A stretch of 64,000 bases of DNA from an uncultured Acidobacteriota bacterium (GCA_963757355.1 CAVWRG010000003.1:2818165-2882164); one strand, 5' to 3'; counted from the first letter of the stretch, positions 5,928 to 35,681 are shown. Program-made: numbers and translations. Notes: generated from the sequence alone by a model not told the origin.

Positions 5928-5950
5928 CTCAGGTTAAATGTCTACCCAAG
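5928..5950 (+). promoter_or_regulatory. PadR1-type operator copy followed by mini-ORF MSTQEATQRHKADRR* (5938-5985)
   Basis: CTCAGGTTAAATGTCTACCCAAG vs CTCGGGTTAAATGTCTACCCGAG at 16420 (21/23). Confidence 0.7.
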
Positions 5951-5988
5951 AAGCCACGCAACGACATAAGGCCGACAGGCGCTAGCGC

Positions 5989-6102
5989 GGCGCCGCGGCG
6001 ACGATGATTAGCGCTAGGTACGCCAGCGCCGCCACCGCTCCGGTGCCGAGGCGCACCACGCGCCCGGGCGGCCGCCGATCCGGAGGAAGCCGGCGAGGCG
6101 CG
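5989..6102 (-). pseudogene. Duplicated 3' fragment of the membrane-protein gene at 14966-15445
   Basis: Near-identical to 14970-15086; encodes RLGTGAVAALAYLALIIVAAAP. Confidence 0.8.
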
Positions 6103-6157
6103 TCCGCGTGGGTCTGAATCGAGGACGTTACACTGCTGGCCCAATAATGAAGCTCGT

Positions 6158-7168
6158 TCAGCCAGACGGGTGCAGTCCGATGGCGCTGAAGTCCTCCACC
6201 GTGTGGATCCAACCTTCCTTGCCGTCGATGCGCACCTTGAGCCAGAGGTCGTCGGTCACACCAAGGTTCACGGAGTCCGGTCCTTGATCCCATGTCGTGA
6301 ACACCTTGCCGGCAAGAATGTCGACCGAAGCATCGCGCTTGACAACGACGTGGGCGGGGATTCCGCCGGGCTCGTGTGGTTCCGCAAAGAGCCGTACGAA
6401 CGTCAGGTCCTCGTCAGCTGGCAGCCGTTCCACATGCTGCACTGGCACTTCGCAGCCGTCTTCGGCGAAGCCGTGGCCGGTTTGGTAGAAGCAGTGCTGC
6501 GCCATGGTAAGGGAGCCTTGTGACCAATCGATGCGGACCGGGATCGTGGCGAAGAAGTAGCCGGTCCACACCCGAACGTTGAGCGTATCGGGCAGAATCT
6601 GCGTCGCCGTGCCGATGCGCCTGATTGCGCCCGGCACAAACCCGCCCATTTCACCCTCCGTGGTCAACGGTTTGGCGAACGGTACGAGCCGGCCGTTCAC
6701 CAGGCCGAGAATCTTCCAAGGGCCTCCGCTCAGCGGGGCCGAAGGCAGACATTGGCTGTCGATGAGGAACCCCTTGCCGTTGCTGCCGTCGAGACGCTCG
6801 ACGTCTGCTGAGCAGCTTTCAGAGAATTCTCCACGTTCAATCGAGTACGGAAAACTCTCGTGATGCTCGACCGTGCCGCCGGCACCGACCACTTCGAGGG
6901 ATGCCAGTGCTTGGGCGTCGGGACCGTTCTTCCCAGGCAATCGCTTGTAATGGTGGACGATCGTAAAGCTCTTTCCGCCGACCACGAACGGACCGTCCCG
7001 CTCGTCCACGTCCTCGAGTCGCGGTGATGTGGCAAGCGGTTGCGCTTGAGGCTGACCGTTCGCGAATCGCGTGCGGGAGACGACCAACAAGACCAGCGCC
7101 GCCATGCCGAAGGAGCGGGCTCGTTCCCTGGAAATCCACCGCCGCGGTCGCTCGATGACGATAGGCAC
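6158..7168 (-). CDS. Hypothetical exported protein
   Basis: GTG at 7168 after AAAGGA; hydrophobic signal-like segment MAALVLLVVS; C-terminal WLKVRIDGKEGWI resembles an SH3-like end. Confidence 0.65.
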   Translation of the reverse strand: MPIVIERPRRWISRERARSFGMAALVLLVVSRTRFANGQPQAQPLATSPRLEDVDERDGPFVVGGKSFTIVHHYKRLPGKNGPDAQALASLEVVGAGGTVEHHESFPYSIERGEFSESCSADVERLDGSNGKGFLIDSQCLPSAPLSGGPWKILGLVNGRLVPFAKPLTTEGEMGGFVPGAIRRIGTATQILPDTLNVRVWTGYFFATIPVRIDWSQGSLTMAQHCFYQTGHGFAEDGCEVPVQHVERLPADEDLTFVRLFAEPHEPGGIPAHVVVKRDASVDILAGKVFTTWDQGPDSVNLGVTDDLWLKVRIDGKEGWIHTVEDFSAIGLHPSG

Positions 7169-7191
7169 ACTGGATCCTTTGGTCGTTGCCT

Positions 7192-10100: not shown

Positions 10101-10914
10101 AGAAGTCCGTTCGGGCGGGCGTCGACAGAATCGTGCCGTCGGCCGCGAGCACCGACGTCTGGACGATCGACGCGATCCAGACGCTGTTGTCCGCGGGGTT
10201 GATGTGATAGCTCTGGAAATATCCTCGAAGGATGTCCGTGGCTTGCTGCCCTGCGAACTCGCTCCCGGCGATCCGCGTGTTGGTGGCGCCGTCATACACC
10301 TCGTACCCGCCGACGGTGCTCGAGGTCCCGGACGCGATCGCGTAGATCTTATTGGTCGCGGGGTTGACGATCTGCGCGCCAACAAATGGTACCGTCGGAC
10401 TCCCTGTCGCCACCACAGCCAATTCGGCGCCGGTCGTGCCGTCAAGGGCGACGAGCCCCTGCGGCGCGCTGACATAGAGCGTGTTGGTGACGGGATTGTA
10501 GCCGCCGCTCGCATATTGAGGGGGGACGAGAGGATCCGCTCCCGGTATCGGCGGAGGCGTGAAGGTGCGCACGATCGTATCGGTCGTGCTGTCGATCACC
10601 TGAATCGTCCCGCCGATCAAGTAGATTTCGTTCGCCGACGGACTCAGGAGCATGCCATATCTCGCACCGTTGGTATTGGCGAGATGGGTGATCGTCGTGT
10701 TCGTGAGGGCGTCGATGACGCCGATCGTGCCGAAGTCCCCGACCACATAGAGTTTGTGGTTCGCCGGATTCAGCAACATCTGTGTCGGATTGGTCAGTGC
10801 GGGCTGAGGCCCGATCGGAACCGACGCCACCGAGGTTTGAGCGTGCACCGCGATCGGCGTCACTATCGCGGCGAGCGCCGACACCACCCGCACCATCGTC
10901 CAGCGGAACCGCAT
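7192..10914 (-). CDS. Large secreted YVTN/YncE-type beta-propeller protein with three carboxypeptidase-regulatory-like (Ig-like) repeats
   Basis: 1240 aa; signal peptide; repeated AVNPATNxIYV; three SISGxIxxxxGxGLxGITV...TYTIxP repeats. Confidence 0.85.
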   Translation of the reverse strand: MRFRWTMVRVVSALAAIVTPIAVHAQTSVASVPIGPQPALTNPTQMLLNPANHKLYVVGDFGTIGVIDALTNTTITHLANTNGARYGMLLSPSANEIYLIGGTIQVIDSTTDTIVRTFTPPPIPGADPLVPPQYASGGYNPVTNTLYVSAPQGLVALDGTTGAELAVVATGSPTVPFVGAQIVNPATNKIYAIASGTSSTVGGYEVYDGATNTRIAGSEFAGQQATDILRGYFQSYHINPADNSVWIASIVQTSVLAADGTILSTPARTDFYRIDGRTDQVTTFTTFGLFTGIGFDPASGRYIGTGGCIPTTGVAPPSLQKDPCSITNTTGFNAENLVAFDPANPASLIAVNTTGFQFTAGFTNGVSCGLGYFQFVGADVSGGNLYRAQEDCTSAHPAELIVGKADFGAAPAPTVPPSLSAHWVANLPTKVTAIFDAEFLTNATHITVDPSTHRALFFTTAENMLTGVDPAVPALSSQLLGNTPAGLAVNAATNTIYVGDRTSKTLNIIDGATNATRPQVQAGAGPYVAVNPATNQVIMAGPSDHTADPNQVQGAFLLDGISESVVRPLEAAATSPVAVNPVTNIAYFANGTQWYAVDLSTGSRTFTGADLSGTGADVCQITGIGVNAATNQIFVAGKCQVNGQTLALFDGATNSLLQQVSLGAFITAGSNFGFGNLGVNTRTNKVYVENIRLLNFGGSVNFEDPAIEVFDGAALAHLATIKGPRGQMAIDTATDVVYACGGYCMAIDGRTDTSLSTFGTPGAQQSAVAVNESTNTVYIASTRPDPHLPGGSPAGFVDVFRGVPPSVSVSGSILSSAGTGIAGITVAIAGPIVTTVTTDATGLFTVPRLTPGTYTITPKSTSFVFQPAVRTLTVADASLTDVTFTAVPSFSISGQIVDAAGAGLPGITVVSQGAVTTTAITDAAGQFALTGFPTGIYTIVPATTAFLYTPASQSVTVVDANVTGVSFTAAPTFTVSGQVTGANGVGLAGVTVTAQGAISATTVTGVNGQFALAGLPGGTYTITPTSAGVVLAPSSQTVKVAKADIPGLTFSVIPPLAITSYTLSPYSTIGSGVVTIGTIVLNQQAPAGGVVVALSASDTKPAKFPATVTVAPGQTSATFNVQGNGVSAISTVTLSASYTGALSPSGTVASAVLTVAPTDVLHVTKATWSTSAQVLTVTATSTNAQAIIAVLNANGNVPLGTMSSLGNGSFSFQTTMASLSSVSIKSNLGGSTGQGVSVIP

Positions 10915-11025: not shown

Positions 11026-11388
11026 AAGATGCGGCGTGATCGTTCGATTGCTTCCGCGTTTTTTTGCCGCGGAAATATTCGAAGAAGTGGTGCGTTCCGG
11101 CTCACGCCGTAATCAGCGCGCAGGCGCGGGGCGCACGAATTGCGAAAGGGTTTCCGTAACCTGAAACCGCGTCGCGACTCCGGCGTTGACTCGAGACGGA
11201 AACGGAATCAAGCAGTGTGGCGCCTTTGGTGTACTCTCGCCAGGTACCTCCGAGTACCTCCAAGTGCGGACGAAGCGTCCACGGGCATCGGATTGATCGG
11301 ATGCCCTCTCGGACGCCGTGAATGCGTGTTTAGCATTCGCTAAGTCGCGCTCGGTCGCCATATGCCGACCGAGGCAAGCCGAGAGACC

Positions 11389-11787
11389 TCAACGCGGATC
11401 GGGGCCCAAGAGGTCCCACCGGTTGCCCTCGAGGTCGAGAAACACGGCGAGCTTTCCGTACGGCTCGTGGCGAGGCGACGACACGAATCGCACACCTGCG
11501 TCGACCATGCGCTGATGAGACGCATCGAAGTCGTCCACGCGGAGAAACAGCCCGACGCGACCAGCGAATTGCTGGCCGACGATGCTGCCCTGGTGCCCGT
11601 CGGCACGCGCGAGGAGGATGCCCGTCTGCCCGCCATGGGGGCGCACGACGACCCAGCGCTTAGGGCGTCCATCGTTGGTCAGCGACGGAGTGTCTTCCAC
11701 TAGCTCGAATTGCAGCGCCTGCACGAAGAACTGGATCGCGGCATCGTAGTCCCGCACGACGAGGGCCACGAGTTCAAGATTCGACAT
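11389..11787 (-). CDS. VOC/glyoxalase family protein
   Basis: MSNLELVALVVRDYDAAIQFF...EPYGKLAVFLDLEGNRWDL. Confidence 0.9.
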   Translation of the reverse strand: MSNLELVALVVRDYDAAIQFFVQALQFELVEDTPSLTNDGRPKRWVVVRPHGGQTGILLARADGHQGSIVGQQFAGRVGLFLRVDDFDASHQRMVDAGVRFVSSPRHEPYGKLAVFLDLEGNRWDLLGPDPR

Positions 11788-11938
11788 CGAGGCGTAGATT
11801 ACTCTCGCGCAGTCGCCCAGTGTTGAGTAATCCGCATGGAGGCACCCACCCGACGGGTAGCGATGTGGGGTGTTGTTACAGGCTCTTAGGGTTATCAATC
11901 GCCAGCCGCCGTGCGATCGCTGTTTACCAGCACATGAT

Positions 11939-11995
11939 GTCAGGTTGACATCTGACCTGAGTGTACGCGATTCTCGGGTGACATGTCTACCCAAC
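11939..11995 (+). promoter_or_regulatory. Dual inverted PadR1-type operator pair
   Basis: GTCAGGTTGACATCTGACCTGAG (11939-11961, contains TTGACA), 11-bp gap, CTCGGGTGACATGTCTACCCAAC (11973-11995). Confidence 0.75.
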
Positions 11996-12075: not shown

Positions 12076-12103
12076 ACCACGCGAAGTCACTCGAGGCGAA
12101 GAA

Positions 12104-13174
12104 ATGAAACAAACCCGAATCGTGCTCTTAGCCGTGCTCATCTCCGCAGCCGCGGTCTCCGGCCAGCAAGTGGCGAACAGCGGCAGCGCTCCCGCGGACA
12201 TTGTTTATGGACAATCCGGCCAGCTCGTTGACGTCGGGGGATTTCGGCTGAATCTCTACTGCATGGGGAGCGGCTCGCCCACGGTCGTCTTCGATTCCGG
12301 ATGGGGAGACTGGGCGCCCGCGTGGTCGAAGGTGCAGCCACAGATCGCAAAGTGGACGCGCGCCTGCAGCTATGACCGTGCCGGCACGGGATTCAGCGAT
12401 CCGGGTCCCATGCCGCGCACCAGCGTGCGCATCGCCAAGGAGCTGCGCACTGCGCTTCACCATGCCGGCATCGCGGGCCCCTACATTCTGGTAGGAAGCT
12501 CCTTCGGCGGCGACAACATGCGAACGTTTGCGGACCTGTACATGGGTGAGGTTGCGGGGCTCGTCTTGGATGACGCCGATCCCGACGACCTCGAACCGAG
12601 GGAGATGCGAGAAGAGGCACATCGAGCACACGCTGGGATTCCCTCGGGTCTGCGCGACTGTCGCAACGCGATTGCCGAGCACAAGCCTTTGCCCGCGCCA
12701 AATCCTCGCCAGCCACAACAGACCTGCGCTCAGCGGTTTTTTTTCCGGGGTTTGCCGGAAGCCGAGTGGTCTCCGGAATTGAACGCCAAACTATTGGAAA
12801 TCGCGCAAACCAAAGTTGCCATGTATGACGCTTATTCCTCGGAGATGGAACAAACAGCGGCGGACGAAACCTATCTGCAACAGCGCCGCCGCTCGTTCGG
12901 CTCGCGGCCTATCCGCGTGCTCACCTCCGGCAACCACGGTGTCGGCCACCTGGGGATGAAGCCTGCAGACACGCCGGAACACGTCAAATATGAGCACGAG
13001 ACCACGCTGGCCCAGGCGCGCTGGCTCGGACTGTCTTCGAACGCGAAACAGATCTTCGCCCGCAATAGCTCGGAATATATCCAGTTCGACGAGCCGGAGA
13101 CCGTGATTGACGCCATCCGTGAAGTGTATGACCAGACAAGACGACCCCTGGCTGCGCACCGCGACCAAAAGTGA
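12104..13174 (+). CDS. Secreted alpha/beta hydrolase
   Basis: Signal peptide; CSYDRAGTG; nucleophile elbow LVGSSFGG. Confidence 0.9.
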   Translation: MKQTRIVLLAVLISAAAVSGQQVANSGSAPADIVYGQSGQLVDVGGFRLNLYCMGSGSPTVVFDSGWGDWAPAWSKVQPQIAKWTRACSYDRAGTGFSDPGPMPRTSVRIAKELRTALHHAGIAGPYILVGSSFGGDNMRTFADLYMGEVAGLVLDDADPDDLEPREMREEAHRAHAGIPSGLRDCRNAIAEHKPLPAPNPRQPQQTCAQRFFFRGLPEAEWSPELNAKLLEIAQTKVAMYDAYSSEMEQTAADETYLQQRRRSFGSRPIRVLTSGNHGVGHLGMKPADTPEHVKYEHETTLAQARWLGLSSNAKQIFARNSSEYIQFDEPETVIDAIREVYDQTRRPLAAHRDQK

Positions 13175-13290: not shown

Positions 13291-14799
13291 CTAGTACTTC
13301 GGCGGCTTCGCGCTGTCGACGACCTTCGCCCAGTCAAGGACGTCGTAGTGCATCCCGAACGCCCTCTTCACGCTCAAGTGCTCGCGGTTCACCGCATCCA
13401 CCGCTTCCGAGACTTGTTGCGGCAGGAAGATCCGCTCTCCCGCAATCGTGAAGAGATCGCTCGTGTATAACAGCTCGTACTCGGGAAAGTACACCATCAT
13501 CTGACGCTCGCCGGTCACCGTGCGCAGCGGGTAGAGCTCGATCCGGTTCGCTCCAGTGCCGAGCGTCGTCTTCGTGGAGATGGGGTGCATGCGCGCCGGC
13601 TTCGCCGCCTTCGCGAGCGCGTCAGGAAACGATCGATACGTCGCCGCGAACAGCCGGTTGAGAATCGGGACGTTCAGATCGAGCGCGTAAATCGGGACAC
13701 CGCGCGCGACGTACTCGCGCATCCCGCCAATGTGCGGCCACGAATCTGACGTCGTGACGACCGCTTTGATTGCCGCTCCGTCAAAACGCTTGCCTGCGTC
13801 CTCGATCACCCTCGCCGAGTAATCGGACACGAGTGGCCCTTCGAGAATCACGACCCCATCGTCCTGCCGCACCTCCGTGATGTCCCAGTTGGCCGGGACC
13901 TTGACGATGCCTGGCGCGAGCTCCACGGCCGGCCGCTCCGGGCTGCCGAAGGGGATCTCGGCGATGCGGCGGCGGTTGGCGATGAAGGTCTGACGCACGT
14001 CTGCGGGAATCGAAAAGGCTGCCGGATCGACGGCGGCGTTCATGCGGACGCGCGTGATGTCGACGCGGCCATCCGGCCGGCCTCCGGTTGAAAAATCCCA
14101 CAGCCGCGGAAATCTGATCCCGTCGGGTTCGAGGATCCACACGCCGAAGGTGACGCGCTGCGTGACGTCGCCCCACGGCGCCCAGAACGTCTCGAACGGC
14201 CTCGCGCGCGTGATTTCCACAGCCTTCGGCAGCAGGCTCGGCGGGTTGAGCAGAATCCGCACGCGGGTCGAGCCGCTGGTGAACGCGACGACATGATGCG
14301 TGTATCCGTGCAGCTGAACGTCCGGCTCCGCGTGCAGATCGGCCGCGTCGAGCGCGGTGAGGACGACGCGCTCGGGCTCGAACGCAAGCGGCAGCGTCGC
14401 GATTTCCCAGGGCGTTCGAGCCGGTAGCCAGCGATCGTTGCTCTTCTCCAGACCGACTCCCGAAACGGTGAGCGTCGTACCGGGCGGCAGCCATTCGCGG
14501 TTGTTGACCCAGTCGGGCGTCGAATAACCGCGCACCCGGGCGGTCCGCCGAACGGCGTCGGCCGCGAAGTCCCGGACGTCGGTGAAGTCCGAGTACGTGG
14601 CGACCCACGGTCCTTCCGGCCGCTCTGATTGCTCGCGCTGGTACAGCGTCGAAACACCGTCCAGTTCGATGGCGGTCAGTGTGCGCAGCTTTTCTTCACC
14701 GCCGAGCGCAGCCGCCGAAGCCTTGAGCCACGATCGCGCCTGGTCGGCGGGCGCAGCGGCCGCGAGAAGCACGAGAATCAGCGTGAGAAGTTGCGACAC
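13291..14799 (-). CDS. Secreted MBL-fold metallo-hydrolase-like protein
   Basis: Signal peptide; C-terminal VVTTSDSWPHIGG (degenerate metal motif), LLYTSDL, GMH. Confidence 0.7.
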   Translation of the reverse strand: MSQLLTLILVLLAAAAPADQARSWLKASAAALGGEEKLRTLTAIELDGVSTLYQREQSERPEGPWVATYSDFTDVRDFAADAVRRTARVRGYSTPDWVNNREWLPPGTTLTVSGVGLEKSNDRWLPARTPWEIATLPLAFEPERVVLTALDAADLHAEPDVQLHGYTHHVVAFTSGSTRVRILLNPPSLLPKAVEITRARPFETFWAPWGDVTQRVTFGVWILEPDGIRFPRLWDFSTGGRPDGRVDITRVRMNAAVDPAAFSIPADVRQTFIANRRRIAEIPFGSPERPAVELAPGIVKVPANWDITEVRQDDGVVILEGPLVSDYSARVIEDAGKRFDGAAIKAVVTTSDSWPHIGGMREYVARGVPIYALDLNVPILNRLFAATYRSFPDALAKAAKPARMHPISTKTTLGTGANRIELYPLRTVTGERQMMVYFPEYELLYTSDLFTIAGERIFLPQQVSEAVDAVNREHLSVKRAFGMHYDVLDWAKVVDSAKPPKY

Positions 14800-14965: not shown

Positions 14966-15445
14966 TCATGGCGCCGCGGCGACGATGATCAGCGCCAGGT
15001 ACGCCAGCGCCGCCACCGCGCCGCTGCCGAGCCGCCACCACGCGCCCGGGCGGCCGCCGATCCGGAGGAAGGCGGCGAGGCACGCGACGATCAAGATGAA
15101 GTGACCGAGGCTGCCGAGGGCCACCATCATCGTATCGACCCGCTGCACGTGCCCCGTCGCCAACAGCGACCAGAACTCGCGTGTGCCGGCCTGTGTCAAG
15201 TGCGTGATGAACAGGTTCAGACTGTTCCAGGCGATGGCGACCGCGATCGCCGCGCCGAACACCTCCGGCCTGTTCCGGCGGCTGAGAATGATGATCGCCA
15301 CGTAAATCAGCGCCTGCAGAAGGTGCAGCACGCGCAGCTGCGGTACCACGATGGCGGATCCCGCCAAGGCGACGATGAAAAGCGACGAGCCGACGTCGAT
15401 AGCGACGCGCGTCCAGCGTGCCGGGACGTCCGGAGTTGTTCGCAT
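14966..15445 (-). CDS. Hypothetical multi-pass membrane protein
   Basis: 159 aa with about 5 hydrophobic segments. Confidence 0.75.
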   Translation of the reverse strand: MRTTPDVPARWTRVAIDVGSSLFIVALAGSAIVVPQLRVLHLLQALIYVAIIILSRRNRPEVFGAAIAVAIAWNSLNLFITHLTQAGTREFWSLLATGHVQRVDTMMVALGSLGHFILIVACLAAFLRIGGRPGAWWRLGSGAVAALAYLALIIVAAAP

Positions 15446-15480
15446 GCTGAACCTTACGGGAATGCGAGCGCCCGAGTTCC

Positions 15481-15537
15481 GTCAGGTTTGACGTACGGCC
15501 TCAAAATACCGATACTCGGGTGAAGTGTCTACCCGAG
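15481..15537 (+). promoter_or_regulatory. PadR1-type promoter/operator module
   Basis: TTGACG (15488) - 17 bp - GATACT (15511); CTCGGGTGAAGTGTCTACCCGAG (15515-15537) overlaps the GTG start. Confidence 0.75.
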
Positions 15538-16352
15538 TCACATGGGGTCGGATCGAGTGGCCGAGCGGAAGCCGTCGTTCGATCGACCTCGACCTGCCCT
15601 ATGGTGGCCAATCAATTGTGTACTTCGACCGCCCAGGTCCTGAGGTGCCGATTCTGTTCGTGCACGGCCTGGGGAATGCCGCCGCGAATTTCGAGGAGAT
15701 GCTCGAACAGCCGGCGCTGGAGCAAAATCGGCTGGTTGCGCTCGATCTGCCCGGTTGTGGGCAGAGTCCGTATCCGTCCGATCACGCACTCGACATCGAT
15801 GCGCTGGTGTCGATCGTGGAGGGCTTTCAAGAGGCAGTCGATCTCGGGCGGCACCTGATCGTCGGTGCCAGTATGGGAGGCCTTGTCGCCCTTCTCTGTG
15901 CCGAGCGTCACCCCGAACGTCTCGTCGGCTTCCTGAACGTGGAGGGCAACCTCGCGCCCGAGGATTGCATGTTCTCGCGTCTCGTCGTGCCGCATTCCTT
16001 CGACGAGTTCAATCGCGAGGTCTTCCCGCGGATAAAAAAGGATCTACAGGCTCAGGACGGACGTGGCCCTGCCAGGCATCTTGGCGTGCTCGCCGCCGCC
16101 AACCCTCGGGCCTACTATGACTTCAGTTTTCAGACGGTCTCATATTCCGATGAGGGAAGACTGCTCGACCGATTCGTGGCGTTGCCGACTCGGTGTCACT
16201 TTGTCTATGGGTCGATGAACCGTCATCTCAGTTATCTTTCGCGCCTGCGGCGGTCGGCCTGCATCGTCACGGAGATTGAGGGAGCCGGCCATTTCCTGTT
16301 CTACGACGCGCCTGAGTATTTTGCGATCGCCGTCGCGGCAGCTGCGCGATGA
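15525..16352 (+). CDS. Alpha/beta hydrolase
   Basis: ILFVHGLG, ALDLPGCGQS, GASMGG, GAGHF; start uncertain. Confidence 0.9.
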   Translation: MSTRVTWGRIEWPSGSRRSIDLDLPYGGQSIVYFDRPGPEVPILFVHGLGNAAANFEEMLEQPALEQNRLVALDLPGCGQSPYPSDHALDIDALVSIVEGFQEAVDLGRHLIVGASMGGLVALLCAERHPERLVGFLNVEGNLAPEDCMFSRLVVPHSFDEFNREVFPRIKKDLQAQDGRGPARHLGVLAAANPRAYYDFSFQTVSYSDEGRLLDRFVALPTRCHFVYGSMNRHLSYLSRLRRSACIVTEIEGAGHFLFYDAPEYFAIAVAAAAR

Positions 16353-16385: not shown

Positions 16386-16442
16386 TTCGGATTGACAGGC
16401 TACGCGAAGAAGCTTCATACTCGGGTTAAATGTCTACCCGAG
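16386..16442 (+). promoter_or_regulatory. padR1 promoter with autoregulatory palindromic operator
   Basis: TTGACA (16392) - 18 bp - CATACT (16416); palindrome CTCGGGT-N9-ACCCGAG (16420-16442) covers the ATG at 16430 (leaderless-type geometry). Confidence 0.8.
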
Positions 16443-16780
16443 ATACCAAGGATCGACTCGAACTGCTGCAGGGCACCCTCGACCTGTTGATCCTGCGCAC
16501 GCTGCTCTTCGGACCGCAGCACGGGCAGGGCATTGCGCGCGCCATCAAGCACACGTCGCTCGAGGAACTGCTCGTGGAGCATGGGGCACTGTATCCTGCC
16601 CTTCAACGGCTCGAAGACCGCGACTGGATCCGCGCGAAATGGGGCACTTCGAAGAACAATCGTCGGGCCCGGTTTTATGCGCTGACGCCGGCCGGGCGCA
16701 AGCAGCTCGTGCGCGAGACGACGAAGTGGAAGCGTCTCGCGACCGCCATCGGCCGCATCCTGGGATCCGCAGCGAGTTAG
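16430..16780 (+). CDS. PadR family transcriptional regulator (acidobacterial type), PadR1
   Basis: [11 protein letters not shown]...HGQGIA...[11 protein letters not shown]...[11 protein letters not shown]. Confidence 0.95.
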
Positions 16781-16783
16781 GCG

Positions 16784-19441
16784 ATGCATCGACGTCGCCG
16801 CCCATCCCGCGACTTCGCTGCCGAAATCGAGGCGCACCTCGAGTTGGAGTCTGAGGGCCTTCAAGAGGAAGGCCTCAGTGTCGAACAAGCGCGTGCCGAG
16901 GCCCGTCGCCTGTTCGGCAACGTGACCCACGCACAGGAGCGCTTTTACGAAGCGGGCCGCTGGCTGTGGTGGGATCGCGTCTGCCGGGACGTCGGCTACG
17001 CTGCGCGCATGCTCCGCCGATCGCCCGGATTCACTCTGGTCGCCATGCTGACGATGGCGTTCGGCATCGGCGCGAGCACCGCGATTTTCACCCTGGTCGA
17101 CGCCACGCTCCTGCGTCCGCTGCCGTATCCGCACGCCGAGCGCCTGGTCGTTCTCCAGGACGATCTGCCCGGCGTCGGGACGACGGACGTGGGCATGTCG
17201 ACGCCCGAGTGGAAGGACTTTCAGCGTTCCGGCATTTTCGAGCTCGTCTCGCCCACGTGGTACGACGATAACAATCTGACGGGCTCGTCGCAGCCCGAGC
17301 GCGTGCGCCAGCTCAGCGTCGCACCGAACTATTTCTCCCTGCTCGGTGTGGCGCCTCAGCTCGGCCGAACGTTCAATCCCGACGACCTCACGCCGGGCTA
17401 CAACCTCGAAGTCGTCATCAGCGACGGCATCTGGAAGCGCGGCTTCGCAGCCGATCCGCACGTGATCGGCCAGACCATTCATGTCGATTCCGACGCGTAC
17501 CGCATCGTTGGCGTGATGCCGCCGGATTTCCGAGCGCCCGGACGCACGATCGCGGAGCGGAACATCGACGTCTGGTCCGCGGGCGGTTTCTCCGCGACGC
17601 CGTTCGCCGATCCGCCGACGCGCAGCAGCCACTTTCCGGAAGCGATCGGCCGGCTGAAAGCGGGGCTGTCGATCACGGAGGCGCAGAGCCGCGTCGATGC
17701 CGTCGTCGCGTCGCTGCGGCAACGGTTTCCTGACGACTATCCGCCGCAGAGCCGGTGGACCGTGCGGCTGGTGCCGCTGAAGGATCGTGTCGTCGGCGAC
17801 GTGCGCCGGCCGTTGCTGCTGCTGTTCGGCGCCGTCGCGCTCGTGCTGCTCATCGTCTATGTCAACGTCGGCAACCTGCTGCTCGCGCGCGCCAGCGCGA
17901 GAGCGCGTGAGATGGCCGTCCGCCAGGCGCTCGGCGCCGCCCGCTCGCGGCTCGTGCGCCAGTTGCTGACCGAGAGCCTGCTGCTCTCGAGCCTTGGTGG
18001 GATCGCCGGCCTGATGATGCTGGTGGCGACGAAGAGCATCCTGCTGCGCCTGGTGCCGGAGAGCCTGCCGCAGCTGAACGTCCTCTCGGTGAGCTGGCGC
18101 GTGCTGCTCTTTGCGCTCATCGCCGCGGTGTCCGCGGGCGTGATCTTCGGGCTCGCGCCCGCCTGGCAAACGGGGCAGCTCGACGTCGCGGGGACGCTCA
18201 AACAAGAAGGCCGCGGATCGAGCGGCCCGGGAGGGGCGCGCACGAGACGCGTCCTCGTGGCGGCGGAGTTCGCCCTCTCGCTCATGCTGATGGTGGCCGC
18301 CGGTCTCCTGCTGCGCAGTTTTTCGGATCTGCTCAACGTCCGCCTTGGGTTTCGCCCGGAAGGCGTGATGACCGTGAAGACGCGGCTGCCTTATCCGAAC
18401 GATCCGACGCTGGACCGCTACTTCACCGTTCCGCAGCAGGCCGTCTTTTTCCGCGACGTGCTTCGCCGCGCGCAGACGCTGCCCGGCGTGGCGGAGGCCG
18501 CGCTCGGCAACACGACGGCGGTCCCGCTCGATCACGCCGAGAAGGACCAGAATCGATGGTCGCTCGTGATCGAAGGCCGAGCGACGATCGCGAGCCAGGC
18601 GCCGCTCGTCGATCAATCCATCGTGACGTCCCAATATTTTCACCTGATGGGGATGGTGCTTGATCGCGGACGCCTTTTTACCGAGTTCGACGATGAGAAG
18701 GCACCGCCGGTGGCGGTGATTAACGAGGCGATGGCGCAGGCGTTCTGGCCGAACGAGAACGCCGTGGGGCAGCACATCCGCCTGGGGCGGCTCGCCAAGG
18801 GATGGACAACCGTCGTCGGCATCGTGGCCGACATGCACACGGAGTCGCTCGCTGCCGCACGCGTGCCGCATGTCTATGCGAATCTCTATCAGAGCGGCGC
18901 GAAACGCCTGGCGATCTTTCTGCGAGGGCATCTCGACGCGGCGACGCTGCCCGATCAGGTGCGACGCGAGGTTCAGGCCAGCGATCCTTCTCTGCCGGTG
19001 TTCGGCGGGCAGATGCTCGAGGATACGGTATCGGCCTCGCTCGCGCAGCGGCGCTTCGCGATGGAAATCGTCGCGCTTCTTGCGCTGACGGCGCTGCTCC
19101 TCGCCACGCTGGGCATTTACGGCGTGATGTCGTTTCTCGTCCGCGAGCGGACGCGCGAGATCGGCATCCGTCTCGCGCTCGGCGCGGGGCGGCGGAGCAT
19201 TCTCGGCATGATCGTGCGCGAGGGCCTGAGGCTCGCCTTCGCGGGCGCCCTCGCCGGGCTCGCCGGGGCCGTGCTCGTGTCGCGCCTCATGGCTGGCGTC
19301 TTGTACGGCGTGAGACCGAGCGATCCGCTGACATTCGGCGGTGTCGCGCTCCTGTTCATCGTCGTCGCACTGCTGGCGTGTTACATTCCGGCGCGCCGCG
19401 CGGTATGCGTCGACCCGCTCATGGCGCTGCGATACGAGTGA
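16784..19441 (+). CDS. ADOP duplicated ABC permease (MacB/FtsX-like)
   Basis: [57 protein letters not shown]. Confidence 0.95.
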
Positions 19442-19461: not shown

Positions 19462-20694
19462 ATGCGAAGTATCTCCGGCATCCTCTTGGCAGGCGTTCTG
19501 TTCGCGGCCGCGGCGCGTCAGGGACAGCAGCCGCGAATCGTGGACCTGAAGGCGCCCGACGGCGTGGCGCTCAGGGCGAGTTACTTCGCGGCGGGGAAGC
19601 GTGGCCCCGGTGTACTGCTCTTGCATCAAGTCAACCGCGACCGCACGGCGTGGGACGACGTTGCGCGCCGCCTGGCGGCTGCGGGCATCAACACGCTGAC
19701 GCTCGACATGCGCGGGCACGGCGACAGCAGTGACGTGCCGTTCGAGAAGCTCCCGCCGCTCGAGCAGCGCAAGGCATGGCTCGGATGGCCGGACGATGTC
19801 GAGACGGCGTTTCAGTTTCTGGTGTCGCAGCCTGACGTGAACCGCGACGTCATCGGCCTTGGAGGCGCGGGGCTGCTCGGCGTCGACAACTCCGTGAAAG
19901 CCGCGCGCAGGCATGCGCCGCAATTGAAATCGCTCGCGCTGCTATCCGGCGAAACGTTCCTTCCTGAATTGCAGTTCCTGCACGAGGCGACGCAGTTGCC
20001 GGGCCTTTTTGTCGTGGCGGACGACGACGAGTATCCGCCGACGGTGGAAGCGATGGAGCTGCTGTACGCCACATCGTTGAATCCCGGCAAGAAACTGGTG
20101 CACTACTCGGCGCGCACGGAAGCGCCGTGGCTCTGGTATGAGCCCTTCGACATTGGCAAGGTGACCGCGACCGGGGGCCACGGCACGGACTTGTTCAAGG
20201 GGCATCCCGAGCTGCCCGGCATCATCGCCGATTGGTTTGTCACCACGCTGGTGAAGACGCCCGGGCATGCTCCAGCCGACACGCTGGCGGCGGCGGCGAT
20301 TCTCAACGAGGTCGATCAGCCCGGCGGAGTTGCGCACGTGACGCAGCAGTTGACGGAAGCGCGGGCGAAGGATCCGCACATCCAGCTGTTTCCAGAAATC
20401 TCCATGGCGATCAAAGGACACGATCAATTGCGCGCCGGAGCCCCGACGTCGGCAATCCCGATCTACGAGCTGAATCTGCTCGCGTATCCGGAGTCGCCGG
20501 ACGCGCATGACGATCTCGCCGGCGCCTACATGGCGGCTGGACAGAAGGAGCTGGCGCGCCAGCACGCGGAGAAGGTCCTGGCTCTTCTGGACGCGGGGGC
20601 GCCCGCGTCGTCGTGGTCCGACACGGCGCCACGGCGAAGCGAGATTCGTCGCGACGCCGAGCAAGTGCTTAAAAAGGTGGATGCGTCGCGTTGA
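19462..20694 (+). CDS. Secreted alpha/beta-hydrolase-fold protein with C-terminal TPR-like helices
   Basis: GVLLLHQ, LDMRGHGDS, GHGTDL; YPESPDAHDDLAGAY; atypical nucleophile elbow (GGAG). Confidence 0.8.
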   Translation: MRSISGILLAGVLFAAAARQGQQPRIVDLKAPDGVALRASYFAAGKRGPGVLLLHQVNRDRTAWDDVARRLAAAGINTLTLDMRGHGDSSDVPFEKLPPLEQRKAWLGWPDDVETAFQFLVSQPDVNRDVIGLGGAGLLGVDNSVKAARRHAPQLKSLALLSGETFLPELQFLHEATQLPGLFVVADDDEYPPTVEAMELLYATSLNPGKKLVHYSARTEAPWLWYEPFDIGKVTATGGHGTDLFKGHPELPGIIADWFVTTLVKTPGHAPADTLAAAAILNEVDQPGGVAHVTQQLTEARAKDPHIQLFPEISMAIKGHDQLRAGAPTSAIPIYELNLLAYPESPDAHDDLAGAYMAAGQKELARQHAEKVLALLDAGAPASSWSDTAPRRSEIRRDAEQVLKKVDASR

Positions 20695-28459: not shown

Positions 28460-28474
28460 GCGAAACCTGGCTTC

Positions 28475-29889: not shown

Positions 29890-32316
29890 TCACTCAATCC
29901 GCAGCGCCGACAACGGATCGAGGCGCGCCGCGCGTGCGGCGGGCACGCTGCACGCCAAGAGCGCCGCACCGAGAAGCACAAGGGCGACGACGGTGATCGT
30001 CAGCGGATCCGACGGGCTGACGGAGAAGAGCAGCGCGCGCAGCAGCCGGCCGGAAGGAATCGCTGCGACGAGGCCCGCGATGAGTCCCGCCGCCACTGGC
30101 GTCAGTCCCTCGCGCGCGACGAGGCGCCACACGTCGGCGCGGCTCGCGCCGAGCGCCATGCGGATGCCGATCTCCTGCGTGCGCCGCGCGATGGACTGCG
30201 ACACCACACCGTACACACCGACGGCCGAGAGAAACAGCGCCGCGATCCCGAAGAAGATCACGATCTCGAGCTGAAACCGCCGGGCGGCCACCGACGCATC
30301 GAGAATCTCGCCGCCTGTCGAGACGCGGGGCAACGGATCGCCGGGCCGCATCGCGTGGACGGCCGCCTGGACCGCCGTCGCGACCGAGCGAGGATCGCCG
30401 GCCGCGCGCACGGCAAGTCCAACCGGCGATCGGAAGCGCTGCCAGTACGGCACGTAGACGGTGAGGTTTGGTGTCTTTTGCAGACTGACGCGCACGTCAC
30501 CCACGATGCCGACGACCTCGATGGAGGGCTCGGAGTCCGCGCCGAGTTTGAACGACTGGCCGACAGGATCCGTTCCGGGCCACAGGCGTCGAGCCGTGCT
30601 GGCGGACACGACCGCGACGGGATGATCGCCGTCGCTGTCCTGAATCAGCCGGCCGGCAACGAGCGGAATGCCAATCGCTGAAAAGTAGCCGGGCGTGACG
30701 CACCGATAATCGGTCGTCGGCCACTCGTTCGCGCCGAGCGCGACGCCGTCGATATGGATTCCAAGATTGCTGCCTTCGCCCGACAGTGGCAGCCGGTTTG
30801 CGACGCCGGCGGCCGTGACGCCGGGCAGCGCCTCGACTCGTGCAAGCAACGCACGGACGAACGCCACGCCGGCGTCAGCCTTTCCGGATACCGTCACGTT
30901 CGTGGTGAGCACATGATCGGCGGCGAAGCCGGCATCGACGTGCGTCAGCCGGACGAAGCTCACCAGAAGCAGGCCTGTGATCGCGAGCGCGACCGTGCAC
31001 AATGCGGCCTCTGCGCCAATGAGCACGCGGCGAAACACTCCGCGTCCGTCACCGGTCAGCGCGCGGCCGGCCGACGCGAGCGCGAGCTGCGGATCGGACG
31101 TGGCCGATCGCCAGGCGGGAACGGCGCCCGTGACCAGCGCGACCATCAACGTCAGCGCCGCTGCGGCTGCCCACGCCGGCAGGTCCATGCCGATGGGGCG
31201 GAGCTGCGGCAGGCTCAGCGCGCGGCTCGCAAGCACCGCGCGAAGCGACCAATCGGCAAACAGCAAGCCGACGACGCTTGCGGCCGCCGCAATCGTCACC
31301 GTTTCCGTCAACGCCTGCTGCACCAGTCGGCCGCGGCTCGCGCCGATCGCCGCCCGGATCGAGAATTCGCGCCGCCGGCCGAGCGCCCGCACCAGCAACA
31401 GGTTCGACACGTTCACGCAGACGATCAGCATCACGATGGCGCACGCCGTCAGCAGGACGACGATGCTTGTGTGGACCTGCGAGGCGGCCTGCGCCTGCAG
31501 CGGCCTGATGATGATGTGCAGCTCCGCGTCGGCGCCGGCGGACCTGGCGATGTCGCGCTCGATCGTTTCGAGATCGTCGTGCGTCTGAGCGAGCGTGACC
31601 GCGGGCTTGATGCGTCCGATGCAGGCGTAGTTGAACTCGGCCATGCGCGTGAGGTCTGGCTCGCGCACGACGAAGGGAAACCAGACATCTGCAGGCAGGT
31701 CGCCGGACAGCATCGCGGTAAGATGACTCGCGCGCGGCACGGCCACGCCCTCCGGCAGCACGCCGATCACTTCGTATGACACGCCGCTGAGGGACAGCGT
31801 GCGTCCGACGACGCCCGGATCGGAACCAAATTCACGAACCCACAGGCCGTGGCTCAGGATGGCGACGTGCTCGTGTCCAGGCTGCTCGTCGTCCTCCACG
31901 AACCCACGTCCAAGCGCCGGCCGGATGCCGAGAAGGGAGAAGAAATTGGCCGATACCAACTGTGCTGTGAACCGTTTCGGAGGTCCAGACGGTGACGACA
32001 GCACGACGCTGCTTCCGGCGACGAGCGCGACGCCATCGAGCGTTCGGCTCCGCAGCCGCCACTGTCGAAAGTCGTACGCGTTGACGGGCAGCTCGGGAGA
32101 GATGCTCGAGAATCGCGGCACCTGCTCCTGGATGGCGACCAACTGGTTGGCGTCGGCGTATGGCAGCGGCCGCAGCAGCACGTCGTTCACGGCCGCGAGC
32201 ATCGCCGTGCTGGTGCCGATGCCGAGCGCGAGCGACAAAACGGCCAGCACGCCGAAACCGGGCTGTCGCAGAAGTGACCGGCAGGTCAGCCGGATGTCCC
32301 AGAGCACTGGACGCAT
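29890..32316 (-). CDS. ADOP duplicated ABC permease
   Basis: LRQPGF, LLRPLPY, CVNVSNLLL, PAARAARLDPLSALRIE. Confidence 0.95.
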   Translation of the reverse strand: MRPVLWDIRLTCRSLLRQPGFGVLAVLSLALGIGTSTAMLAAVNDVLLRPLPYADANQLVAIQEQVPRFSSISPELPVNAYDFRQWRLRSRTLDGVALVAGSSVVLSSPSGPPKRFTAQLVSANFFSLLGIRPALGRGFVEDDEQPGHEHVAILSHGLWVREFGSDPGVVGRTLSLSGVSYEVIGVLPEGVAVPRASHLTAMLSGDLPADVWFPFVVREPDLTRMAEFNYACIGRIKPAVTLAQTHDDLETIERDIARSAGADAELHIIIRPLQAQAASQVHTSIVVLLTACAIVMLIVCVNVSNLLLVRALGRRREFSIRAAIGASRGRLVQQALTETVTIAAAASVVGLLFADWSLRAVLASRALSLPQLRPIGMDLPAWAAAAALTLMVALVTGAVPAWRSATSDPQLALASAGRALTGDGRGVFRRVLIGAEAALCTVALAITGLLLVSFVRLTHVDAGFAADHVLTTNVTVSGKADAGVAFVRALLARVEALPGVTAAGVANRLPLSGEGSNLGIHIDGVALGANEWPTTDYRCVTPGYFSAIGIPLVAGRLIQDSDGDHPVAVVSASTARRLWPGTDPVGQSFKLGADSEPSIEVVGIVGDVRVSLQKTPNLTVYVPYWQRFRSPVGLAVRAAGDPRSVATAVQAAVHAMRPGDPLPRVSTGGEILDASVAARRFQLEIVIFFGIAALFLSAVGVYGVVSQSIARRTQEIGIRMALGASRADVWRLVAREGLTPVAAGLIAGLVAAIPSGRLLRALLFSVSPSDPLTITVVALVLLGAALLACSVPAARAARLDPLSALRIE

Positions 32317-32424
32317 GATGTCTCTCCTCCACCTCGCCTGGGCCCGCCCATCGATCTGCAAGCATTCAGATTGCTACGGACGGTCGAGGCGAGCTCTCTG
32401 ACATCGGTCGGAGTATCCGTAATA

Positions 32425-32447
32425 CTCGGGTAATATGTCAACCTGAG
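32425..32447 (+). promoter_or_regulatory. PadR1-type operator copy (reads MST*)
   Basis: CTCGGGTAATATGTCAACCTGAG, overlapped by AATACT; lies between the divergent ADOP and oxidoreductase genes. Confidence 0.75.
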
Positions 32448-32510
32448 TCGCGCGTTTCACCTTATACTTGGCGGCAACCTGCACGGACTTCATCCCGTCT
32501 AAGCCGATCA

Positions 32511-33953
32511 ATGTCGATCACTCGACGTACCTTTCTCGCCGGCGCGGGCCTCGTGTCGCTTCGAACAGCACGATACGGAGATCCGCTCGCCAAATTCAGG
32601 AAATCGTTCAAGGGCTCGATCGTGGTCCGCGGTGATGCCGACTACGATCGCATCCGTGCGGTTGCCAGCGTCAACCCTTCCACCGACAAGCGCCCGCGTC
32701 TGATCGCTCGCTGCTCGAATGCCGACGATGTCGCCCGTGCGATAGAGTTTGGCCGGGCGCAAGCGCTGGAGATCGCGGTGCGCGCTGGTGGACACGACGT
32801 GCTGGGCGCGTCCGTCTGCGAGGACGGGATTGTCATCGACGTATCGCGGATGAAAGCCATCGCGATTGATGCCGCACACCGCACGGCGCGCGTCGAGTCG
32901 GGCGTCCGTTCGAGTGAGTTGAACGCGGCGACGAGTCCCTACGGTCTTGCGGCCGTCCTCGGATGCAACCCTGCGGTCGGCGTGGCAGGAGTCACGCTCG
33001 GCGGCGGGCTGGGGTGGTTTCTCGGACGATTCGGCGCAGCCTGCGACAATCTCATCGCGGCGGACGTCGTCGATGCGCACGGCACATATCGGCGCGCGAA
33101 CGCCGACGCATACGCCGATCTCTTCTGGGCACTGCGCGGCGGCGGCGGCAACTTCGGCATCGTCACGGCCTTCGAGTATCGCCTCCACCCGGTTGATCGC
33201 GTGCTGGGAGGCCTGATCGCGTTTCGTACGGACATTGCGCCGTTTCTGCGCTTCTACCGCGACTTCATGAAAGCGGCGCCGGACGCTCTTGCCGTCGAGG
33301 CGAGCATCGTGATACTCGAACGGCCAACCGTGTTCTGCACCGTCTGCTGGAGCGGCGATTCCGCCGACGGCGAACGCGCGATCCGTCCGCTGCGCGAGTT
33401 CGGTCCACCGGTGGCCGACGCCATCGGCCTGACACCGTACGCGCATTTAACTGATCGGCCGGGTCCGGAGTTTTCGGCTCGCGTGTTCGGACCGCCCCCC
33501 ACAACCGCGCCGCCGGCCGGCCAGGTATACGACTACTGGCGAGGCGGCTCACTTCCCGAACTCTCGGACGGGGCGATCGATCAGATGGACGTCGCGATTC
33601 AAGCGGCATCGAGAGGCATGTCGATGGGGCTCGGGCACTACATGCATGGTCAGATTTGCCAGGTGCCGCCCGCTGCCACGCCGCTGCCACGTACGCCCGG
33701 ACAGTTCACATATTTCTTCGACGCCAACTGGCGTAACTCCGCGCGCGCGGACCTGGCGATGGGGTGGGTGAACGACGCGATGGCGGCGATGCGGCCGTGG
33801 TCGAAGGCCGGCGCCTACGTCAACTACTTGTCCAGCGATAACGACGAAGCCGTGCGCGGCGCCTACGGCGCCAACTACTCGAGGCTCGTCGCGCTGAAGC
33901 GAAAGTACGATCCCTCGAATGCCTTTCACGGTAACCGAAATATCCGGCCCTAG
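32511..33953 (+). CDS. Tat-exported FAD-binding oxidoreductase (berberine-bridge/VAO family)
   Basis: TRRTFL Tat motif; VRAGGH; LFWALRGGGGNFGIVT; AYVNY; LKRKYDPSN. Confidence 0.93.
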   Translation: MSITRRTFLAGAGLVSLRTARYGDPLAKFRKSFKGSIVVRGDADYDRIRAVASVNPSTDKRPRLIARCSNADDVARAIEFGRAQALEIAVRAGGHDVLGASVCEDGIVIDVSRMKAIAIDAAHRTARVESGVRSSELNAATSPYGLAAVLGCNPAVGVAGVTLGGGLGWFLGRFGAACDNLIAADVVDAHGTYRRANADAYADLFWALRGGGGNFGIVTAFEYRLHPVDRVLGGLIAFRTDIAPFLRFYRDFMKAAPDALAVEASIVILERPTVFCTVCWSGDSADGERAIRPLREFGPPVADAIGLTPYAHLTDRPGPEFSARVFGPPPTTAPPAGQVYDYWRGGSLPELSDGAIDQMDVAIQAASRGMSMGLGHYMHGQICQVPPAATPLPRTPGQFTYFFDANWRNSARADLAMGWVNDAMAAMRPWSKAGAYVNYLSSDNDEAVRGAYGANYSRLVALKRKYDPSNAFHGNRNIRP

Positions 33954-34162
33954 CTCTTCTTGCCGCTCGCTGGAATTCCCAGCCACGCGCCCTGGTTCGT
34001 GCCCTCCATCAGCAGTTGCATCACCACTCGATCGCCTTCACTCAACACCCGTTCGATGCTGAAGGGGAGATCGGGGGAGCTGGCGATCCCGCCCGCAACA
34101 TGCTCCTTGATCGCCTGAGGGCCGCGCGTCGCTGCATCAGCTGGCGCGGCTGTTTGGGTCAT
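33950..34162 (-). pseudogene. SnoaL-like ester cyclase fragment
   Basis: PDLPFSIERVLSEGDRVV...GTNQGAWLGIPASGK; internally deleted and truncated. Confidence 0.7.
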
Positions 34163-34232
34163 CCATCGCGCTCACTCGATATCGCCATTCAGTCTCTAAG
34201 CGACGGCACGTGCGTTCATCTTCATCTCCTGC

Positions 34233-35615
34233 TCAGGGCTTCTTTCGGGCAGGTATCTCAGCCAAGTCATTCCTTACGACCTGACCGTTTTTCATCACGA
34301 ATCGGACGCGCTCGAGTTCGCTGACGTCGGCGATCGGATCGCCAGACACGGCCACGAGATCGGCGAACGTGCCGGGCTCGATGGCGCCCACGCGATCCGG
34401 CCAACCCAACATGTCCGCGGCGCTGGTCGTGATCGCGCGAATGATATCGAGCGGCGGCATCCCGGCGTCGCGCAGATTCACGAACGTAGCGGCGCTGGCT
34501 TGCCCGCGCGTCTTGCCCGGATAGAGCCAGCACATGTCAGATCCCGCCGCAAACTTTACGCCCGACTTCAAGACCCGTCGTACCAGGTCGGCGTATCGTT
34601 GTTGGGTGCGAGCCGCCGAGTCGGTGTTCGACGCGCGAAAGGACGGGGACATCACGATGCTGGGCTCCATGATCGTGATGAGGAAGCGGTTGTAGAAGGT
34701 CGGCGTCAGATCCAGAAACATCCCCCTGTCGCGCATCTGCTCGAGCTGCTCGTCGGTCACCTGGTTGCCGTGCTCGATGGAATCGACGCCGGAGTCGATA
34801 GCCGTTTGGATGCTCGCCGTATCGGCCGCATGAACGGCCACCCTGAGATGTTGGCGATGTGCGGTCTCGACAACCGCCGTCAGTGCGGCGACGGAGAAGT
34901 CTTCGCCGACCGTCACCTTGATGAGATCGACGTTGTAAAAGACGTTCTGTTGCACCGCTCGTCGCGCCAGGTCGGGGCTGTCAACCGGAAGGAATTCCTG
35001 CTCGACGATCGCCTGCGAAAGAGCCGGATTGAGGCTTTGGACATATGAGCCCAGCGCAATCAGCTTGCGCGCCGACGCCAGGACTCGCGGACCCGGCACG
35101 CGGCCGGCATTGATGGCGTCGCGCAGTGCCGTGTCGCCGTCGATACCAGAGTGGCCGAGATTCCGGACCGTCGTAAAGCCGCTCTCCAGGTCTTCGCGCG
35201 CCAGTTGCGCCCCCAGTAGCACCCGCTTCGAGGGAGATTCGGCGACGGCCAACAGGAGGCTGGGAGCAAACATGCCATTGCCCCGGCGCCCGATCTCGGC
35301 TTCCGGCGGGACGACCACGTCGAGCAGCAAGTGGGTATGGCTGTCGATCAGTCCGGGGAGGAGAGTGGCGTTTCCGAGGTCGACGATCGTCGCGCCGGCC
35401 GGTACGTGCGGCTGCACCTCCGAAGGGGAGCCGACTTCTTTGATCGTGCCATTCTCAATTCGCACTGCGGCGGGCGAGAGTACCGAGCCGGTCTTCGGCG
35501 CCAGCAGCCGGGCTGCTTTGACGAGAGTGACGGAACCAGGCGATTGGGCCACCATTCTCCCAACTGATGACAGTGCGAGGGACGACACCGCCAAAACGAC
35601 AACCAGTTTGTGCAT
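34233..35615 (-). CDS. Amidohydrolase family protein (secreted)
   Basis: LLPGLIDSHTH, AVHA, SIEHG, AAGSD, GAIEPGTFADLVAV. Confidence 0.93.
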   Translation of the reverse strand: MHKLVVVLAVSSLALSSVGRMVAQSPGSVTLVKAARLLAPKTGSVLSPAAVRIENGTIKEVGSPSEVQPHVPAGATIVDLGNATLLPGLIDSHTHLLLDVVVPPEAEIGRRGNGMFAPSLLLAVAESPSKRVLLGAQLAREDLESGFTTVRNLGHSGIDGDTALRDAINAGRVPGPRVLASARKLIALGSYVQSLNPALSQAIVEQEFLPVDSPDLARRAVQQNVFYNVDLIKVTVGEDFSVAALTAVVETAHRQHLRVAVHAADTASIQTAIDSGVDSIEHGNQVTDEQLEQMRDRGMFLDLTPTFYNRFLITIMEPSIVMSPSFRASNTDSAARTQQRYADLVRRVLKSGVKFAAGSDMCWLYPGKTRGQASAATFVNLRDAGMPPLDIIRAITTSAADMLGWPDRVGAIEPGTFADLVAVSGDPIADVSELERVRFVMKNGQVVRNDLAEIPARKKP

Positions 35616-35624
35616 CGCGCTCTC

Positions 35625-35681
35625 CACAGATAGACGCCTGACCCAAGGCTACGCCATGCTCAGGTAATATGTCTACCCGAC
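35625..35681 (+). promoter_or_regulatory. PadR1-type dual operator module
   Basis: Inverted weak site ending ...GACGCCTGACCCAAG (35647), 11-bp gap, CTCAGGTAATATGTCTACCCGAC (35659-35681). Confidence 0.75.

Follow-up and report, generated by a model that had tools for sequence, protein, structure and literature searches.

A 64,000-nucleotide stretch of the genome of an uncultured Acidobacteriota bacterium (GCA_963757355.1, CAVWRG010000003.1:2818165-2882164; hereafter the window, positions being counted from its first letter) was found to carry a 23-bp palindrome at six promoters, one of which is that of a PadR-type regulator gene, padR1, in an operon with the ADOP permease gene ADOP1. On comparative sequence evidence, we consider it probable that the palindrome is the PadR1 operator and that its copies constitute a local regulon repressed by its own product, with promoters that mostly work both ways; it would have grown by copying of the padR 5' end.

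Scanning of the window gave exact matches to the consensus on the + strand at 5928, 11973, 15515, 16420, 32425 and 35659, as listed in an initial annotation of this DNA, and a seventh, inverted one (- strand) at 11939-11961; with up to 3 mismatches no match beyond these seven was found in the window. In the genome-wide motif check called for by that annotation, close matches proved to be confined to the window and the nearest padR paralogue: with 0-1 mismatch the 6.55-Mb genome contains 7 matches, every one inside the window, and with 2 mismatches a single extra one at C3:1749423, the 5' end of that paralogue. When scored with a matrix made from 137 sites of other genomes (74 start-side and 63 upstream), the seven window sites reached 24-32 bits, against 5.6 for the best-scoring other position of the window; ten genome positions scored at least 12 bits, seven of them in the window (within 30 kb), two at the C3:1749423 paralogue and one alone at C2:1216666. 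The palindrome is imperfect (10-16 of 23 positions symmetric), has the core RGGTNA-N5-WACCY in one direction and RGGTWGACA... in the other, and, at padR1, lies over the promoter of the operon that encodes the regulator itself. In two public runs, contigs span 11792-11992 with 0 differences and 15151-15552 with 1 difference, so that the 11939/11973 and 15515 modules are not assembly errors. The window is the richest single cluster of modules among those surveyed. A mobile repeat (miniature inverted-repeat transposable element, repetitive extragenic palindromic (REP) element or cassette site) was considered and rejected, since the copies are confined to 30 kb and their likeness ends within ~45 bp; target-site duplications were not looked for.

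The padR1 product matches TIGR03433 with 143 bits (cut-off 101.8), and ADOP1, which directly follows (16430-19441 for both), matches TIGR03434 with 882 bits (cut-off 622.3). The genome encodes 31 TIGR03433 PadRs above cut-off and >60 ADOP permeases, and many padR paralogues have, at the -35 box and close to the start, a palindrome of their own whose spacer is 5 bp. Of the 32 paralogues of the genome that were examined, only 2 have the site described here, and these are the two with HGQG (helix 2) and EHGALYPAL (helix 3). GTDB yielded 87 matches in all, of which 73 lie at the start of a padR of one orthogroup and 1 more at a truncated padR; among the remaining 13, 7 are accompanied by an inverted partner and 6 appear to be fortuitous. 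Acidobacteriota account for 72 of the 80 titled records. As the GTDB set was selected by motif, padRs picked by similarity were added (28 loci, 3 not parsed): a site of at least 16.7 bits was present in 13/13 with HGQ and in 0/12 others, the alignments of the 13 including the operator in 6 cases and not in 7. A tree of 60 proteins places the PadRs that have the site on one side of a branch (86/83), the sole exception being L281, a nested Q-to-H member with a changed half-site (a single event). Among the orthologues, the non-coding left site is conserved in 65/74, a -35/-10 pair with a 17/18 spacer is likewise found in 65/74, and M-S-T is invariant. Because 73 of the 87 GTDB matches start genes of one PadR orthogroup, the palindrome is likely the operator of PadR1, an idea of the initial annotation that is well supported by the counts over GTDB starts, paralogues and HGQ proteins. 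In a separate observation, padR1 and its paralogue cluster (99/88) with L224, L250, L275 and L276 and not with same-order homologues, a hint that this group may be of horizontal origin.

When reversed, the site contains TAGACA or TTGACA, that is, a sigma70 -35 box; since the core reads RGGTWGACA... in one direction, each site carries such a box. In the 57-bp dyad, which consists of two inverted sites 34 bp apart (11-bp spacer), each site holds the -35 of one promoter and also the point at which the opposite promoter is predicted to start transcription. The -10-like hexamer reported earlier to overlap each site was found at 6/6. Pairs of -35 and -10 elements (17-18 bp) were identified rightward at 11973, 15515, 16420, 32425 and 35659 and leftward at 5928, 11973, 15515, 32425 and 35659, hence in 10/10 directions facing a gene or open reading frame (ORF) and in 0/2 others (rightward at 5928, leftward at 16420). 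Between 4.7 and 36 kb there are four pairs of head-to-head genes, and on reading of the layout by eye each of them carries a module. An independent promoter scan of 4.5-20 kb gave 7 matches, 6 of them in modules (shuffles 3.1 +/- 2.0). A leftward TAnnnT -10 at the right distance is present at 4/5 cargo sites versus 0/74 padR orthologues (Fisher p=3e-6), and xAnnnT at 5/5 versus 15/74 (Fisher p=7e-4); on these sequences the leftward promoter is not ancestral. Transcription starts are predicted near 11953/11981, 15496/15523, 16428, 32405/32433 and 35639; at 15525, 16430 and 35669 the predicted start lies 2 nt 5' of the codon, the predicted divergent starts are 27-28 bp apart, and elements stand on both strands at 4 modules (predictions only). 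Judged by their elements, most of the modules would be two-way sigma70-like promoters, a feature absent from the initial annotation.

An inverted second site 11 bp upstream had also been noted at 11939, 16386 and 35625, and in weaker form at 15481 and 32391. Matrix scoring retained 11939 as strong (26.8 bits), 35625 (5.6 bits) and 16386 (1.6 bits) as degenerate yet significant, and 15481 as weak (about 0.006 over 7 shifts); the site at 32391 was indistinguishable from background (about 0.2), and near 5928 (5894) no second operator above background was detected. The three recognisable pairs of the window all have a 34-bp offset, which is found in 9/74 orthologues (33 bp in 53/74); this shared minority offset fits local copying.

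The reading M-S-T was likewise confirmed at all six sites (V-S-T at 15525, where the start is GTG), including the padR1 start at 16420. MST is not a required start, however, and the description of the palindrome as a start-codon module was overstated. ATGTCTA (MST) is the reverse complement of the TAGACA -35 box. As the frame extends over only 3 codons at 32425, 15 at 5928 and 30 at 11973, it is not the start of the neighbouring genes there; it serves as a start in three cases only, namely those of padR1, of the hydrolase at 15525 and of the probable pseudogene at 35669. A common functional start at MST was rejected on account of these short frames (3-30 codons) and of targets with starts of their own. 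The homologous pair L096/L102, which has in common a Tat-like exported enzyme under the module, reads MST in frame in only one of the two genomes. By sequence, the reading is the reverse strand of the -35 box plus inheritance from padR.

Remains of padR coding sequence were sought past the operator copies. At 5928, 15 nt past the site match orthologous padR codons (p=1e-4), and 43 nt are 81% identical to 16415-16457; at 15515 the codon match is borderline (p about 0.017). The 15525 hydrolase has ~12 extra N-terminal residues compared with its 69-79% relatives, and a 90% relative has the same extension, starting MSTQ. In other genomes, padR-coding relics were found at L015 (a decayed padR) and L016, padR tail relics (19 tested) were significant only in L096 (p=0.001), and padR-less modules stand 60-100 bp before the cognate ADOP at L096, L097, L105, L113, L120 and L139. 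Two other paralogues of the genome left padR-less copies (C3:1965819 and C3:2035508), one with the padR head and tail fused; the surveys for such copies (palindrome, BLAST) were noisy, and among the matches listed three candidates were followed, 2/3 being supported and the third, C2:677693, being ambiguous. From relics, padR-less modules and paralogue copies, duplication with loss of padR is evident as a process; relics attest to it at one or two of the five window copies and in other genomes, and the remaining three cargo copies would have arisen in the same way.

In 40/40 orthologous loci padR is followed by ADOP. Three of these 40 operons run on into homologues of the hydrolase-TPR protein and the amidohydrolase of the window, and two of them also of the 15525 hydrolase. 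Amidohydrolase homologues with a module were found at L098 and L145, and hydrolase-TPR homologues with one at L106 and, divergently, at L145. Several modules with one intact cognate padR per genome occur in G088 (6), G050 (3) and G045 (3). In close relatives the site was found in only 1/40, located at padR, and searches of 300 phylum genomes each at strict thresholds gave no homologue of the FAD oxidase or of the 12104 hydrolase. Most of the targets are secreted or membrane proteins; at the level of target families, this suggests an envelope or small-molecule response. A similar secreted protein (by eye), presumably 'DinB-like', follows ADOP at L246, L249, L250 and L262 and has a module of its own in G088 (L099:4085-4687). 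At L144, L147, L148, L149 and L152, a different conserved motif, consisting of two TGTAGTAG repeats ~22 bp apart and 30-110 bp upstream of the amidohydrolase, replaces the PadR1 site; the repeats resemble BlaI/CopY half-sites, and suggest that the same cargo may be under another regulator there.

Features of the window at and around the putative operator copies.
Feature	Position (strand)	Promoter elements	Remarks
Operator copy	5928..5950 (+)	leftward -35 TAGACA 5939-5944, -10 TACTAT 5915-5920; no rightward -35	
padR 5' coding relic (MSTQEATQR...)	5938..5965 (+)		open for 15 codons only
Predicted secreted protein	4731..5549 (-)		no Pfam match; ~360 nt from predicted leftward start of 5928
Complete 57-bp module	11939..11995	rightward TTGACA-18-GATTCT; leftward TAGACA-18-TACACT	inverted site 11939-11961, 11-bp spacer, site 11973-11995
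VOC/glyoxalase gene	11389..11787 (-)		predicted leftward target of 11939..11995
Alpha/beta hydrolase	12104..13174 (+)		signal-peptide-like N-terminus; own ATG; predicted rightward target of 11939..11995
Module	15481..15537	rightward TTGACG-17-GATACT; leftward TAGACA-17-TATTTT	site 15515-15537, weak left site
Small hydrophobic protein	14966..15445 (-)		no family match; predicted leftward target of 15481..15537
Metallo-beta-lactamase-fold-like ORF	13291-14799		weak match; follows 14966..15445
Alpha/beta hydrolase	15525..16352 (+)		GTG start within operator
padR1 promoter module	16386..16442 (+)	TTGACA-18-CATACT; no leftward -10	degenerate left site; site 16420-16442 over start codon
padR1	16430..16780 (+)		TIGR03433; predicted near-leaderless
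ADOP1 permease	16784..19441 (+)		TIGR03434; N-terminal prefix domain NF038403
Hydrolase + TPR-like protein	19462..20694 (+)		after ADOP1; homologues with own module in L106, L145
Module	32398..32447	rightward CTGACA-17-AATACT; leftward TTGACA-18-GATACT	site 32425-32447; second operator not recognisable
ADOP permease without own padR	29890..32316 (-)		predicted leftward target of 32425 site
FAD-binding/BBE oxidase	32511..33953 (+)		own ATG; predicted rightward target of 32425 site
Module	35625..35681	rightward TAGACG-18-CATGCT; leftward TAGACA-18-TAGCCT	degenerate left site; site 35659-35681
Amidohydrolase	34233..35615 (-)		signal-peptide-like N-terminus; predicted leftward target of 35625..35681
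98-codon ORF (probably a pseudogene)	35669..35965 (+)		starts in operator; stop at codon 99; insertion sequence (36147-37644) just past

The neighbours differ from site to site, as had been stated, and the hydrolases, FAD oxidase, amidohydrolase, VOC protein and permease were all identified; the term 'detoxifying' applied to the enzymes is a family-level label. Several observations were made on the surrounding DNA. The gene at 4731..5549 has a 95.7% identical copy without an operator at C3:2752167-2753006, the likeness (window 4720-5559) stopping at the ribosome-binding site, and 5989-6102 duplicates, at 93% identity, the 3' end of ORF 14966; both suggest cassette-like gene shuffling within the island. 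The insertion sequence at 36147-37644 has two 97% copies on C2, and an IS630 transposase gene lies at 42230-43282. In the ORF at 37631-41032, after padR3, the ADOP match spans only profile positions 2-552 of 803. An intergenic 130-bp stretch (11077-11207) is 89% identical to C3:2801271-2801402. Elsewhere, a REP-like 21-bp palindrome (AAAAGGGG-N5-CCCCTTTT) has 177 genome matches with up to 3 mismatches (orientations merged), often in close pairs (e.g. C4:79051-225000).

A number of results weigh against a local PadR1 regulon of copied promoters. Amidohydrolase loci were collected from metagenomes (80, of which 57 with enough upstream DNA were scored, 26 close and 31 distant), and the site was found at 1/26 close relatives (65-78%, some duplicates) and 0/31 distant ones; the sole site-bearing relative is the sister of the window gene in the tree (100/98), with 76% protein identity. 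The homologue loci of the VOC and metallo-beta-lactamase-like genes (4 loci) are without the site as well, and regulon membership is therefore lineage-specific. Most of the 50 motif-bearing genomes have a single module, and the site was found in 24/400 class relatives, never more than two. In the window, no padR-coding relic follows 11973, 32425 or 35659, and no copy has a padR tail relic. Two targets are doubtful, the 5549 gene because it lies ~360 nt off and ORF 35669 because it seems to be disrupted. Part of the rightward -10 is dictated by the motif, and this -10 also occurs at 5928, with no gene following; the B-site half of the scoring matrix was derived from a pattern built on window sites. 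PadR1, which has the variant residues Gln33 and His51-Gly-Ala53, lacks the canonical two-tyrosine DNA-binding motif (B. subtilis Tyr20, Tyr42): on a reading of motif position, Gln33 stands where B. subtilis PadR has the first DNA-binding tyrosine, Tyr20. Invariant in 34/34 aligned orthologues (Tyr55 is kept), Gln33 thus deviates from that motif and may be a residue that determines specificity.

It is unlikely that the copies are neutral scars, mere debris left when padR was duplicated and deleted in an island undergoing rearrangement, with no regulatory role now. Relic codons at 5928, insertion sequences, a recently duplicated gene and the 93% gene-end copy (5989-6102) would all be expected of such debris, as would retention of the site by only one of the 26 amidohydrolase relatives; however, the operators have kept their scores of 24-32 bits where the adjoining downstream DNA has lost all likeness at 3/5 copies, the cargo sites have leftward -10 boxes that are absent from the 74 padR promoters, and the site is common to the sister amidohydrolase at 76% identity. 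An ordinary regulon, the sites of which evolved in place by point mutation and share their geometry owing to constraints of repression, would account for the lack of coding relics at 11973, 32425 and 35659 and would conform to the norm of local autoregulated regulons (passages of PMC4052901). We regard it as improbable in view of the padR codons past the site at 5928 and probably 15515, of the 34-bp offset common to all three recognisable window pairs against 9/74 orthologues (33 bp in 53), and of the padR-less copies before cognate ADOPs at six other loci.

It is very unlikely that the motif has a different reader, be it another regulator or a sigma factor, or that it is conserved only for its promoter elements and the N-terminal codons. 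The -35 box does make up half of the site, which encodes the invariant M-S-T, and PadR1 has lost the Tyr20 equivalent; yet the non-coding left copy is conserved (65/74), presence of the site follows the recognition residues from paralogue to paralogue, and other paralogues have different N5 palindromes at the same place. The initial annotation had presented a local regulon and relics of duplicated padR 5' ends as alternatives. A working regulon is likely, promoter elements having been kept where the gene points away, but its membership is not stable, given the single site among 26 amidohydrolase relatives; padR 5' relics exist at 5928 and probably 15515, but not at 11973, 32425 and 35659. The alternatives are not exclusive, and the copies look like a local regulon derived at least partly from copied padR 5' ends.

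For such a regulon under PadR1, the following mechanism is proposed. Binding of a PadR1 dimer to either site would block RNA polymerase both ways, as may be expected from the behaviour of B. subtilis PadR, and the C3:1749078 paralogue may share the repressing role. About ten transcription units would be released together, namely the padR1-ADOP1 operon and with it as many as nine others, including those for three hydrolases, the VOC protein, the FAD oxidase, the amidohydrolase, the second ADOP and small membrane or secreted proteins. Release would most plausibly occur via the N-terminal prefix (HAAS-type) domain of ADOP1 upon an envelope or small-molecule signal; we give an even chance to this step, which follows the HAAS-PadR proposal (PMC11237479) by analogy. 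The prefix domain matches NF038403 with 36.9 bits (cut-off 30), and NF038403 is equated with HAAS from the FtsX/MacB example in passages of that paper. As to origin, a padR-ADOP unit would duplicate and padR would be deleted, with the promoter, operator and a few codons staying before new genes; the latent reverse -35 would later gain a -10 and drive the leftward gene. Only tentatively can this be extended to padR genes as generators of portable cassettes, in which padR, once duplicated, would be deleted and leave behind a symmetric promoter-operator of 57 bp, whose leaderless start could still be used, wiring flanking genes on both sides to the surviving repressor.

There is nothing unusual in a PadR repressor that controls its own gene or in a local regulon, autoregulated local regulons being the norm (passages of PMC4052901). 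With the B. subtilis PadR/padC system, as described in sections of PMC5728393, the window has in common the winged-helix dimer family, two palindromic operators per promoter region and the alpha3 tyrosine (here Tyr55); by contrast, PadR1 is of the short 116-aa type, Gln replaces Tyr20, the spacer is 5 bp instead of 6, the operator includes the -35 box and the padR start codon, and binding is predicted. Listeria LftR, LltR, LstR and LadR (sections of PMC6624303) are likewise autoregulated small PadR repressors with membrane-protein genes, and a single operator between the divergent ladR and mdrL has been suggested there; here one site stands at six promoters, among 31 paralogues above cut-off and with signs of copying from the repressor gene. 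The HAAS-PadR-like winged helix-turn-helix dyad (Ravi et al. 2024, PMC11237479) shares a free-standing PadR next to a MacB/FtsX permease whose N-terminus is a helical prefix domain, whereas the words 'operator' and 'Acidobacteria' do not appear in its main text and no target genes or sites are described in the passages considered. Divergent starts from symmetric promoter elements are known from Warman et al. (bioRxiv 10.1101/2020.01.31.928960), according to parts of which bidirectional bacterial promoters are enriched in acquired DNA; the separation of 27-28 bp predicted here is near their 29-bp class, and the symmetry here comes from an inverted operator pair holding both -35 boxes, with predicted starts. 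In promoter capture (passages of PMC3590769), too, a gene falls under an existing regulated promoter through rearrangement; here the donor would repeatedly be the repressor's own gene, which is then deleted, so that control is exerted in trans. A literature search outside subscription journals, RegPrecise and supplements found no paper on operators of the acidobacterial PadR/ADOP/TIGR03433 family.

For one member of an extensive and so far unstudied expansion of regulators and permeases, in a phylum that is dominant in soil, the analysis provides a concrete operator, promoter positions and a list of targets. Because operator, promoters and targets are now specified, the HAAS-PadR proposal becomes directly testable with a 57-bp reporter. 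The loci described may be viewed as snapshots of regulon growth through promoter capture from the repressor's own gene. If padR genes do generate portable cassettes, the ~30 paralogues with private palindromes would represent a general route to many orthogonal regulons, and would amount to a natural kit of orthogonal two-way switches.

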